Shown piece by piece: positions 7,521-58,424 of a stretch of 64,000 nt of DNA (within the stretch, counting starts at the first letter, position 1; every line of letters starts with the position of its first letter). Source of the DNA: Desulfatiglandales bacterium (lineage in GTDB: Bacteria > Desulfobacterota > DSM-4660 > Desulfatiglandales > Desulfatiglandaceae); NCBI GenBank assembly GCA_963666345.1, contig OY762721.1, forward strand, positions 1,216,001 through 1,280,000. Direction: 5' to 3'. Below the pieces are notes generated by a model, which saw only the letters and a program-made list of their open reading frames with translations, was not told where the DNA came from and did not search any database. A program made the translations under genes and the position numbers.

Positions 7521-7824
7521 AACCCGAAAAGGCCGGTTCAATAAAGCTCCCCGCATCAATCTGCGGGCCGCCCGGGCAAACACGGATAGAGGCCTCTATT
7601 ACATGCAGGCAATACGCTATCTTCCCGCACCAACCGCCTGCTTGAACATGCCTTTTTTCATACAAGCATATATCATATGGGGCACCCGCACAAGGATATA
7701 CACGGGAGGGCCGGGTAGCTATATAAAGAGATATAAATCAAGGCGAGTGCGGTTTGCAAGGCAAGGGTTTTGTTTTGTCTTCATGTAATCGTAAGTGCAT
7801 GCCTGCCTCCAATTCTAATTTCAT

Positions 7825-7865
7825 ACAATTTTGTAATAAAAATTGCCTCATTAACACAATTTTGT
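7825..7865. promoter_or_regulatory. Paired near-palindromic sites, candidate activator binding sites
   Basis: ACAATTTTGT at 7825-7834 and 7856-7865, 31 bp apart, about 300 bp upstream of the sigma54 promoter. Confidence 0.45.
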
Positions 7866-7944
7866 ACTTTACGCCCTTCCTATTTGTACCGCCCCCCAAC
7901 CAGCCCGGCAATTACCGTTTCCCGATACCTCTATCTTTTTTTCG

Positions 7945-8143
7945 CACAAGCGCAGGTGCCGGCGCTCTTTTTTCCGGCCTTATCTCACAAAAAATACCAC
8001 AGGAAAATGCAGTGGCCGCAGACAGGGCTTTCTTTCACAGTGCCTTGTCAGCTAATGTAACGCCCGCAAAAGCCCTTGGATACGGCCACTTTTCCGTCAA
8101 GTATAGAGAAGGCCGGAGAAATGAGTGCCGGTGCCGGAGCGTA
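7945..8143 (+). ncRNA. Structured ~200-nt rod-like element, copy 1 (candidate ncRNA or palindromic repeat)
   Basis: Nested stems GGTGCCGGCGCTC/GAGTGCCGGTGCC, TCCGGCCTT/AAGGCCGGA, GTGGCCG/CGGCCAC, AGGGCTTT/AAAGCCCT; homologous to 58227-58424. Confidence 0.65.
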
Positions 8144-8482
8144 CCTGCTATAAATGGGCAAGAAAGACGTGAAACAGCTCCCCATTCGGACTTTCGACCC
8201 ACTGAATCCCTGTACATCTGAGTCCTCATGCCCGGTCAATATGCAAAGAGGTTGTAAAAAGGGCCTGTTTCTTGCAGAATAGAGGTGTTTTTAAAAAAAA
8301 GGACCTTGATAAAAAAGACATGAATCATAAAATCCCCAATTTAGTGCGGATTTTTATATCATGGGAATTACCTCCCGATTAGGGAATAAACACATTAATC
8401 CTTGACCCTTTGGGTACCTGGATTATCTTTCCCGAATCAGCCGTACAAGGACTTATTGTGAAAAGTATCCGGTGAATCGATA

Positions 8483-10654
8483 ATGGATTGGAAAAACAGG
8501 GTATATTGCGGCTCCGTCGCTAAAGAGCATGTCGGCAGGCCGGTGCTTCTTATGGGTTGGATTGACGCCGTCCGTGACCATGGAAATCTGCTCTTTATCC
8601 ATCTCAGGGATATCAAAGGAATAGCGCAGGTGGTATTTGACCCCGGGAAAGGCCTTGAGATGTACGACAGGGCTGTAACGCTGAAGATAGAAGATGTCGT
8701 ACGGATAAGAGGCATGGTCTCGGAGCGCGCCGAGGAAACGGTCAACGCAAATCTTGATACAGGGCGCTTCGAGGTCTTTGCCGACGATCTTGAGATTCTT
8801 TCCCGTTCTTCCTCACTTCCGTTTCAACTGTCTGAAAAGGCGATACTCTTTGGCGATGAAACAGAGGCGAACCCGGAAAAAGTGGATGAGGAACTGAGGC
8901 TTAAATACAGGTACCTTGATCTGAGGAGGCCGTCGGTTCAGGCCATCTTCAAAAAGAGGTATGAGATAATAAAGAGCATACGCGATTTCTTCCATGAACT
9001 TGGTTTCCTTGAACTTGAAACACCTGTTCTGACCAAAAGCACACCTGAAGGCGCCAGGGATTATCTCGTGCCCAGCCGCTTGCACAGCGGTAAATTCTAT
9101 GCCCTTCCTCAGTCTCCCCAGCTCTTTAAACAACTGTTCATGGTAGGCGGAATGGACCGTTATTTTCAAATCGTCCGCTGTTTCAGGGACGAGGATCTCA
9201 GACCGAACCGCCAGCCGGAATTTACCCAGATGGACATGGAGGCCTCCTTCGTAGACGAAGAGTTCATCTACGAGACGGTGGAAAAACTCATATGCCGCAT
9301 ATTCAGCATCGGAGGGATTGAACTGGAAGCCCCCTTTCCAAGGATGAAATACAGGGATGCTATTGAAAGATACGGAACGGACAGGCCTGATATCAGATAC
9401 GAAATGGCCTTTGAAGAGGTGTCGGACATTTTGGCAGAGACTCGATATGCCATCTTCAGGAAGATTCTTGCCGCAGGCGGTTGCGTAAAAGGTTTCTGTA
9501 TAAAGGGCAAAGCGGATGTCATGAGCAAAAATCTTCTCCAGAACGAGTATGCCATGAGGATTGTTCCCGCCCTGGGAGGCGATGGAATGACCTGGATGAA
9601 GGTAACCGCCGGGGGTCTGGAATCAAATATCGTTCAGTTCTTCAGTCCGAATGAACAGGAAGATATAGTAAAAAGGTTTGCCGCTGAAAAAGGTGACGTG
9701 ATCATGATGATCGCGGACAGCTCAAGGGAACTTGTAAACAGCGTGCTATGCGACTTGAGGATAAATGTCGCGCACAGACTCGGCCTCATTCCCGACAATC
9801 TGTTTTGCCCCCTGTGGGTTACTGAATTTCCCCTTTTCGAACTTAAAGACGACGAGCTAAGTTCCCAGCATCATCCTTTTACCATGCCTGAAAGGGCGGA
9901 TTTTGACCCTGATGACAAAGAAGAAATGCTGGGCCTCAATTCCAGGGCCTATGATCTTGTAATGAACGGGGAAGAACTGGGTGGCGGAAGCATCCGTATT
10001 CACAGGATGGACATTCAGGAAAAGATCTTCAAGGCGCTCGGACTTTCAAAAAGCGAGATCGAAAATAAGTTCGGCTTTTTTCTCAAGGCACTCCGGTTCG
10101 GCGCACCACCGCACGCAGGACTTGCACTCGGCATGGACAGGGTGATCGCGATGATCCTGAACACCTCCTCTATCAGGGAGGTGATCGCCTTTCCCAAAAA
10201 CCGCAGCGCCTTCTGTCCTCTAACAGAGGCGCCTTCGAGCGTGAGCCGGGCCCAGTTGAAAGAACTGGACCTCGGCACTGCAAAGGGAATAAAACCTCTT
10301 ATAAAAAGATCAATGGAATCCGAAGTTCAGCAAATCACCGAAAGGCCGCATGAGGAATCGGAAGGGATCTCCATGAATGATGTAAGCCATGTTGCAAGAC
10401 TTGCAAGACTCAGGCTCACAGAAGAAGAGAAAAGGACCTATAAGAAAGACCTTGATGACATACTGGGATATGTTGAGACACTCAAGGAGCTCGACACATC
10501 CAAGGTGAGCCCTATGAGCCATGTCTTCAAATCCCGCAATGTCTGGCGGGATGACAGGGCCGGACGACACCCTGATGACAGCGAAGGCATCTTGAATAAT
10601 GCCCCTCAAAGGGAAGAAAACGGATTTAAGGTTCCGAAAATCCTGGAAGGCTGA
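8483..10654 (+). CDS. aspS: Aspartyl-tRNA synthetase fused to C-terminal GatC
   Basis: RDHG, STPEGARDYLVP, LPQSPQLFKQL, FRDEDLR, GAPPHAGLALGMDR; then a linker and GatC-like VSHVARLARL...ILGYVETLKELDT...NVWRDD...NAP...FKVPKI. Confidence 0.95.
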   Translation: MDWKNRVYCGSVAKEHVGRPVLLMGWIDAVRDHGNLLFIHLRDIKGIAQVVFDPGKGLEMYDRAVTLKIEDVVRIRGMVSERAEETVNANLDTGRFEVFADDLEILSRSSSLPFQLSEKAILFGDETEANPEKVDEELRLKYRYLDLRRPSVQAIFKKRYEIIKSIRDFFHELGFLELETPVLTKSTPEGARDYLVPSRLHSGKFYALPQSPQLFKQLFMVGGMDRYFQIVRCFRDEDLRPNRQPEFTQMDMEASFVDEEFIYETVEKLICRIFSIGGIELEAPFPRMKYRDAIERYGTDRPDIRYEMAFEEVSDILAETRYAIFRKILAAGGCVKGFCIKGKADVMSKNLLQNEYAMRIVPALGGDGMTWMKVTAGGLESNIVQFFSPNEQEDIVKRFAAEKGDVIMMIADSSRELVNSVLCDLRINVAHRLGLIPDNLFCPLWVTEFPLFELKDDELSSQHHPFTMPERADFDPDDKEEMLGLNSRAYDLVMNGEELGGGSIRIHRMDIQEKIFKALGLSKSEIENKFGFFLKALRFGAPPHAGLALGMDRVIAMILNTSSIREVIAFPKNRSAFCPLTEAPSSVSRAQLKELDLGTAKGIKPLIKRSMESEVQQITERPHEESEGISMNDVSHVARLARLRLTEEEKRTYKKDLDDILGYVETLKELDTSKVSPMSHVFKSRNVWRDDRAGRHPDDSEGILNNAPQREENGFKVPKILEG

Positions 10655-58086: not shown

Positions 58087-58226
58087 TATTATGCCTTATA
58101 TCTTTCTACGGATTTCAAACGATCAGGGGTTCCCTTGACAAACCTTCGAAGAATCCGTCACCGGAGCGAATTACTTCCAAATGGGCCGGCATTTTTTCCA
58201 CCCATTCCCACCTCAATTTTTTAACA

Positions 58227-58424
58227 CACAAGCGCAGACGCCGGGATTCTTTTTTCGGTCTTATCTCATAAAAAAATACCACGGACATCCGCAGTAGCCG
58301 CAGAACGGGCTTTCTTCCCGGCTGCCTTATCAGCTAAGGAACCACTTGCAAAAGTCCGCGGATGCGGTTACTTCTCCGAAAACAATAGAGAAGGCCTAAA
58401 AAAGAGTGCCGGTGCCGGAGCGTA
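58227..58424 (+). ncRNA. Structured ~200-nt rod-like element, copy 2
   Basis: Homolog of 7945-8143; stems TTTTTTCGGTCTT/AAGGCCTAAAAAA, AGTAGCCGCA/TGCGGTTACT, CGGGCTTT/AAAGTCCG; identical 3' end GAGTGCCGGTGCCGGAGCGTA. Confidence 0.65.

Follow-up and report, generated by a model that had tools for sequence, protein, structure and literature searches.

Two copies of a 200-nt palindromic element lie in the window

The window, which is the whole stretch of 64,000 nucleotides analysed here, carries two copies of a palindromic element of about 200 nt, both on the + strand. Copy A (7945-8143) lies between a glutamine synthetase gene (- strand) and an AspRS gene (+ strand), and copy B (58227-58424) lies between a GH3 nagZ-like gene (- strand) and a nucleotidyl transferase gene (+ strand). 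An earlier reading made from the letters alone (hereafter, the sequence-only reading) had reported both copies, their strand, and these flanking genes, and all of this agrees with what we find: the two copies align end to end, with 78% identity over positions 1-199 (BLAST). The rod-like fold that it had drawn for each copy is likewise recovered. Specifically, the predicted fold of copy A is a rod of -90.5 kcal/mol (z -7.8) and that of copy B is a rod of -72.9 kcal/mol (z -4.6), with 0/200 shuffled sequences being as stable in either case. The open reading frames (ORFs) across copy A are mechanical ones, and the copies differ from one another by indels of 1-2 nt.

The features of the two loci are given below, where R1 is a covariance model built from the copies of this genome and R2 is a model built from five genera.

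7945..8143, + strand: copy A, 200-nt palindromic core with outer stem, central asymmetric loop, inner stem, and apical loops; matched over its full length (1-199) by models R1 and R2
58227..58424, + strand: copy B, the second copy of the core in the window, matched over its full length by R1 and R2
7986..8001, + strand: copy A, central internal loop, 5' strand, A-rich and then TACCAC; within this genome's copies, no other unpaired stretch is as well conserved (MFE structure, consensus structure, and conservation line)
8096..8108, + strand: copy A, central loop, 3' strand, ending in TAGAG, which is conserved in 8 genera (MFE and consensus structure)
7900..7944, + strand: copy A, conserved 5' flank, a putative left-arm remnant, ending in a T-run and CG where most other copies have TTACG (flank alignment and consensus)
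58182..58226, + strand: copy B, the same 5' flank in weaker form, its last 25 nt aligned by 4 other copies (flank alignment)
8144..8175, + strand: copy A, 3' flanking module that also borders the copy at position 1,129,361 of the genome, one of several alternative mosaic modules (flank comparison)

On the antisense strand, both copies contain a small hairpin followed by a T-run (8008-8020 and 58277-58296, - strand), which was flagged as terminator-like; the T-run is the complement of the A-rich loop and is not kept in other genera. More generally, the terminator-like sites within the element are mostly on its antisense strand, and they are not shared between genera. Separately, the AspRS gene 3' of copy A (8483-10654, + strand) encodes a C-terminal GatC domain (residues 645-717) and is thus an AspRS-GatC fusion.

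The element is a multicopy intergenic repeat

The sequence-only reading had described the element as a duplicated pair, which does not hold for the genome, a single contig of 4.16 Mb. BLAST returns 41 matches, of which 35 are at least 164 nt long (32 full length and 3 of 164-167 nt) and the remainder are fragments; only two of them lie in the window. A cross-genus nhmmer profile detected no further full-length copies in this genome. Dozens of copies were also among the signs, along with insertion polymorphism and the lack of a discrete transcript, by which the sequence-only reading would have taken the element for a MITE/REP-like repeat. Four loci are tandem arrays with a spacing of 282-317 nt. 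Among 30 copies, the mean pairwise identity is 80%, and only 4/435 pairs are at least 95% identical.

Our gene call, a crude, ORF-based one, places all 35 copies in the gaps separating long ORFs; 8/35 coincide with short ORFs that run through the repeat and that we take to be spurious. By the same call, the neighbours are divergent genes for 13 copies, two genes on the opposite strand for 13, two genes on the same strand for 7, and convergent genes for 2.

A metagenome scan gave 29 loci of the element, every one of them from the same organism (98.8-100% identity). Exact-pattern matches at two Flavobacterium loci were taken as chance, with no further similarity to this genome. When contigs of runs X1 and X3 were compared with a stretch of 20 kb, those of X3 also proved to represent the same organism, at low coverage and broken at the repeats. 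No close relative was found in these searches. Some metagenome contigs differ from the genome sequence (G000) in their repeats. Contigs L035 and L045 have two units where G000 1,682,469-1,683,254 has a three-unit tandem array, through either copy-number variation or assembly collapse. When contigs L037 and L041 are compared with G000 1,208,848 and 1,223,945, the repeat on one contig joins DNA 5' of copy A to DNA 3' of the copy 15 kb away, and the other contig has a hybrid repeat at copy A's site. Either copies have recombined in the population, or the assembly is chimeric at these places.

Flanking modules form a mosaic that includes deletion relics

The limits of the core are sharp. In 24/32 copies, the 25 nt upstream are shared with at least 5 other copies, and the upstream consensus is about 45 nt long and ends in TTACG. 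Many copies have, to their left and to their right, a module in which GTTAYNN heptads precede GGAAAAACC, and other short modules occur around the copies, giving mosaic surroundings. The heptad module, with a variable 2-5 units before GGAAAAACC, is present at about 20 places in this genome, some of them without the core, and mostly shares the replication-linked orientation of the core described below; examples lie at G000 1,682,395-1,683,300, 1,760,902-1,761,260, and 2,082,842. Further intergenic modules near the repeats, a GA-rich unit (GGCGAGAAAGGCGTGAAATGCGGGAAAGG-like) and tandem units of 8-9 nt (CTTGAATCC-like), make up mosaic repeat regions (for example, G000 3,376,781, 3,396,991, 3,426,083, and 1,696,570).

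After the heptad module, internally deleted relics are found at several places, in which the first 15-60 nt of the core are joined to its last 6-25 nt. One relic junction falls at a short repeat that is present in both arms. These relics are probably the result of deletions across the hairpin. When the 5' and 3' flanks of each copy in this genome were paired, the copy's own flanks outperformed the mismatched control in only 15/32 cases. Since all copies have the left arm and lack the right arm, the unit that was amplified here would already have lacked one end.

The sense-strand fold appears to be under selection

A 60-pair structure placed on 30 copies from this genome has 91.5% of its cells paired, as opposed to 43-50% when the partner is slid. 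Changes on both sides of a pair occur in 28 cells, compared with 12.4 in shuffles (0/500 reach 28), and are carried by only 10 pairs, a number that 50/500 shuffles also reach. The pair-preserving differences that the sequence-only reading had named are real in this alignment, namely, U-G to C-G at columns 13:201, G-C to A-U at columns 73:150, and G-C to G-U at columns 74:149.

A larger alignment points in the same direction. Across genera, 51/60 pairs are changed on both sides in an alignment of 42 sequences, which was fitted to the model and leans towards pairing. The covariation score of this alignment is 0.46, compared with 0.175 in shuffles (0/500 reach the observed score) and at most 0.10 with slid partners. 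In addition, 8 genera share unpaired motifs at the central loop, with TCTCA in its 5' strand and TAGA in its 3' strand; the A-run of the loop in this genome is not kept in all genera.

The two strands differ in these respects. The sense strand gives the better fold in 25/32 copies, and the 30-copy alignment contains 144 G:U and 34 A:C combinations. The usual mutational strand bias predicts the reverse of this G:U excess on the sense strand, and we therefore read the asymmetry as selection on the sense-strand fold. Taking the covariation and the G:U excess together, a single-strand fold of the sense strand looks to be under selection, in support of what the sequence-only reading had proposed for the + strand. 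The selected form may be a transcript or a single-stranded form of the DNA.

The fold corresponds to no Rfam family, 6S RNA included, as the sequence-only reading had anticipated. Searches with the Rfam covariance models in the window (gathering score), at the locus (E up to 10), and at seven loci from relatives (E up to 1) returned only chance matches to microRNAs or frameshift sites. The 6S model (RF00013) in particular matched nothing in the window (gathering score), on 7800-8300 or in the whole genome (E up to 10), or on the copies from relatives (E up to 1). The same model has no match anywhere in 101 genomes of the family; its silence is therefore uninformative about the 6S RNA of this lineage.

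Copies are oriented with respect to replication

The replication origin of this genome lies at about 2.15 Mb and the terminus at about 0.12 Mb, as judged from the minimum of the cumulative GC skew (2.14 Mb), the position of dnaA (2.16 Mb), and a gene-strand bias that agrees with both. Two full-length DnaA-domain genes, in frames of 444 and 448 aa, lie 9 kb apart at the GC-skew minimum (G000 2,154,127-2,154,606, + strand, and 2,163,464-2,163,943, - strand).

The sense strand of the element is on the C-rich strand in 32/35 copies (P = 4e-7). It therefore carries the nascent lagging-strand sequence, i.e., it is the leading-strand template. When arrays are collapsed, 27/30 loci share this orientation (hand count), and the three exceptions are all no more than 180 kb from the origin. 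This bias exceeds the tie of the copies to their neighbouring genes: 26/35 copies have an upstream gene that is encoded on the other strand. Among relatives in which the transposon ends described below are intact, the bias is absent (11/20 in genome G172 and 11/18 in genome G090, by local GC skew), and a pooled count over other relatives gives 24/32, compared with 25/27 in the control from this genome. Therefore, the strong polarity belongs to the subfamily of this genome and possibly to some others.

Two causes can be envisaged. The polarity may stem from survival, if an asymmetric quasi-palindrome persists at the replication fork better in one orientation than in the other, or the element may have had a replication-coupled, orientation-specific way of spreading. 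As regards survival, such a quasi-palindrome disappears more readily if the better of its hairpins is on the lagging-strand template. Family-specific orientation biases are documented for insertion sequences (PMC3971601).

In relatives, the core is the inside of a MITE

A BLAST search of the element in 40 relatives gave no matches, a result later superseded by the covariance models. Model R1 has full-length matches in 9/101 genomes of the family and model R2 in 18/105 (8/45 genera). Across the order, R2 matches 46/151 genomes in 27/76 genera and three families (8/54 in f1, 19/34 in f3, and 18/53 in f6, with 0/9 in f2, f4, and f5). Relatives that have the core mostly have it in many copies; one complete genome has 42 matches, corresponding by our own count to 37 distinct places. 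The genes next to the core differ between genera, and there is no conserved synteny.

In genus g24, the outer arms are inverted repeats that start with GTAAC, and the flanks contain target-site duplications: of the 18 copies, 15 can be evaluated (both ends well aligned), and 5/15 agree at 8/8 positions and 4/15 at 7/8, while 0/210 mismatched controls reach 7. Flank duplications of 6 bp are found in genus g53, where 4/10 evaluable copies (of 20) agree at 6/6 positions, compared with 1/90 controls. The same inverted repeat also occurs in another family (genome G172), and genus g6 has GTAAY ends with one clear 8-bp duplication. In relatives, the core is thus the inside of a classic MITE, which has GTAAY terminal inverted repeats (TIRs) and is bordered by target-site duplications; these are 8 bp long, except in one genus, where they measure 6 bp.

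Two candidate features in relatives were rejected. A degenerate inverted-repeat pattern in four relatives was dropped, having fewer matches than its control, and a hairpin with a T-run 3' of the core in genus g10, considered as a terminator, proved to be the right inverted repeat of the element. Some copies in g10 share about 150 nt of extra upstream sequence with further hairpins, forming larger composite units (L082, L085, and L094 in G009; L100 in G086).

The ends resemble those of the IS66 family, whose inverted repeats begin with GTAAGCG and which generates 8-bp repeats, as stated in one report (PMC11946415). For ISDge4, an IS66-family member whose inverted repeat sequence is given in a second report, 11/14 positions match the g24 inverted repeat by hand count (PMC12898284). 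An IS66 transposase (PF03050) is encoded in 50/105 genomes of the family, with no visible association between its presence and that of the repeat in these 105 genomes, and no full-length parent IS66-type element with matching ends was found.

The copies of this genome lack transposon ends

None of the 32 copies in this genome has GTAA...TTAC ends with a duplication, and an offset analysis for target duplications detected no consistent direct repeat beyond the flanking module. The inverted repeats of the relatives lie beside no copy in this genome, the IS66 transposase domain PF03050 has no match in it, and a search of it for a parent element sharing the copies' ends returned only decayed copies. 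Of the features that define a MITE, the copies here are short, non-coding, multicopy, and intergenic; TIRs, target-site duplications, and a cognate transposase are missing, and the first two of these are present in relatives.

Transposases of another type are present. Y1_Tnp has 17 matches in this genome, including nine IS200-like genes and three longer ones. The nine IS200-like Y1 transposase genes all lie between 3.09 and 4.16 Mb. Separately, fifteen weak DnaA/AAA matches of equal score, in frames of 247 aa, are IstB-like and probably represent an IS21-family element.

Origin of the element and alternative explanations

Altogether, the element stands for a new family of palindromic repeats, MITE-derived and belonging to one bacterial order, and is represented here by copies that are TIR-less, presumably immobile, and oriented with respect to replication. 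The account that we consider best, and to which we give moderate confidence, is that of an order-wide family of non-autonomous palindromic repeats with a 200-nt hairpin core of MITE origin, of which this genome holds an old, TIR-less, and presumably immobile subfamily. The third alternative of the sequence-only reading had been a mobile element, palindromic and non-autonomous, and it fits both the copy number and the transposon ends of the relatives. The possibly 6S-like RNA gene of its headline is unsupported, given about 35 copies here and many in relatives, no conserved synteny, and TIRs and target-site duplications in relatives. What is retained of its overall interpretation is an element that is structured, strand-specific, covarying, and outside Rfam; the part concerning a duplicated, possibly 6S-like RNA gene is not.

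The GTAAY ends and target-site duplications of the relatives imply insertion by a DDE transposase acting in trans. Such a transposase, most likely of the IS66 family, would paste the element into new sites in these genomes. In the present genome, a unit consisting of the left arm and the core, without the right inverted repeat, may have been amplified long ago, partly as tandem arrays. Today, about 32 intact and about 10 decayed copies persist without an IS66-family transposase and presumably without mobility. Their hairpins would be eroded by deletions that join the arms at short common repeats, presumably through replication slippage, leaving the short relics. Against this account stand the missing ends, duplications, and transposase in this genome, its lack of signs of recent or current mobility, with few near-identical pairs, the lack of a visible tie between IS66 transposases and the repeat in the family, and an orientation bias that disappears where the ends are intact; a DDE mechanism accounts neither for selection on a single-strand fold nor for the conserved unpaired loops.

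In the main rival reading, the element would be a multicopy family of small-RNA genes, with its own promoter in the 45-nt left flank, transcribed in the sense direction into a rod that acts in trans as a protein-binding decoy or regulator, and with the transposon ends of the relatives as a mere vehicle. We regard this as unlikely. It draws support from the fold selected on the sense strand and from the unpaired TCTCA and TAGA motifs, as well as from the 5' flank conserved in most copies. The upstream gene points away in 26/35 copies, so that read-through cannot supply a sense transcript there; a co-oriented gene follows in 20/35; the tandem units resemble promoter-plus-RNA repeats; and the core has persisted in this genome after its transposon ends were lost. 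However, promoter prediction gives no sigma-70-like site 5' of either copy in the window, no sigma-54 spacing is apparent upstream by eye, and no terminator follows the rod. The head-on orientation of 32/35 copies to replication would be unusual for expressed genes, and the element shows no conserved synteny and a patchy distribution among genera. In a version that joins both ideas, which we consider distinctly doubtful, the core would be a working trans-acting structured RNA with a conserved central loop, spread across this order of sulfate reducers by an IS66-type miniature transposon and domesticated here, with its ends lost, more than 30 copies, its own upstream module, tandem arrays, and a head-on orientation to replication.

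We also considered whether the TIR-less unit moves, or moved, in this genome as folded single-stranded DNA by means of a Y1 (HUH) transposase of the IS200 or RAYT type, a route that leaves no target duplication and ties orientation to the fork; we judge it improbable. The copies without inverted-repeat ends or duplications, their strong replication-linked orientation, and the 17 Y1_Tnp matches would all be in keeping with such a route. Moreover, TTAC or TAAC plus one base precedes most cores, which resembles the fixed target of IS608. In one study, the orientation bias of IS200 is explained through single-stranded DNA, and IS200/IS605 elements are described as acting on the lagging-strand template (PMC3971601), whereas the best-folding strand of the present element is on the leading-strand template (32/35 copies). 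No Y1 gene adjoins any copy by position, and the mechanism is disfavoured because of this and the wrong template. In addition, the genome has no TnpB, the element resembles no other repeat end (BLAST), and it forms one long rod rather than two subterminal hairpins.

That the element is a divergent 6S RNA, an RNA polymerase decoy expanded to many paralogues, has next to no probability: its length of about 200 nt, its rod with a large central asymmetric loop (a shape also common in palindromic repeats), and the lack of an RF00013 match to another 6S in the genome or in 101 family genomes are outweighed by the lack of any RF00013 score on the locus (E up to 10) and on relatives' copies (E up to 1), by 35 copies here and dozens elsewhere where one or two genes per genome are expected, by its presence in only 18/105 family genomes where broad conservation in the lineage is expected, by carriage between transposon ends in relatives, by a loop sequence that differs between genera, and by the missing genomic context. 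The usual context of 6S is the 5-formyltetrahydrofolate cyclo-ligase gene, which was not found in this genome. A possible likeness of a loop motif to enterobacterial 6S was set aside, the motif not being conserved in the family. The element is almost certainly not 6S RNA.

The MITE-derived repeat family fills dozens of intergenic regions in many genomes of the order and is absent from Rfam, and giving it a name should prevent its being mistaken for a new RNA gene or riboswitch. Three features go beyond an ordinary MITE: compensatory changes preserve the core in three families while the outer arms vary; one subfamily no longer has transposon ends and presumably no longer moves; and nearly all copies of that subfamily point the same way relative to replication. 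Should the fold work at the RNA level, the family would exemplify the spread of a structured RNA by a transposon; should it work at the DNA level, the family would offer a natural test case for the orientation-dependent stability of quasi-palindromes at replication forks.

Comparison with known systems

In the portions available to us of the literature on intergenic repeats of sulfate reducers, on multicopy 6S RNA, and on MITEs and IS66 in Desulfobacter, Desulfosarcina, and Desulfococcus, we found no description of this repeat family. With 6S RNA (RF00013), it shares its length and its shape, a rod with a central bubble, but it differs in having no match to the model, many copies, a mobile context, and a variable loop sequence. 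REP/BIME and REPIN-RAYT systems are similar to what is seen in this genome in their mosaic intergenic clusters of palindromic units and short modules, their hairpins, and the presence of Y1 genes. The unit here, however, is 200 nt rather than 20-40 nt long, no Y1 gene is flanked by copies, and the relatives have duplications of the DDE type.

Closer are the MITEs derived from the IS66 family (with ends of the ISBst12-group type): the element of the relatives is likewise short, non-coding, multicopy, and intergenic, with GTAA ends and 8-bp duplications. It departs from them in that the copies of this genome have no such ends, duplications, or IS66 transposase, that genus g53 has duplications of 6 bp instead of 8 bp, and that there is no parent insertion sequence with matching ends.

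The bcr1 repeats of the Bacillus cereus group, the ERIC/IRU sequences, and the Correia elements of Neisseria are interspersed, intergenic, imperfect palindromes of 100-200 nt with compensatory changes and a tolerance of G:U on one strand. We know of no replication-linked orientation among them like the one seen in 32/35 copies here. Like these repeats, the 200-nt family consists of interspersed intergenic palindromes with an RNA-type fold that is kept by compensatory changes; unlike them, it spans three families of one order, with a conserved core and outer arms that differ.
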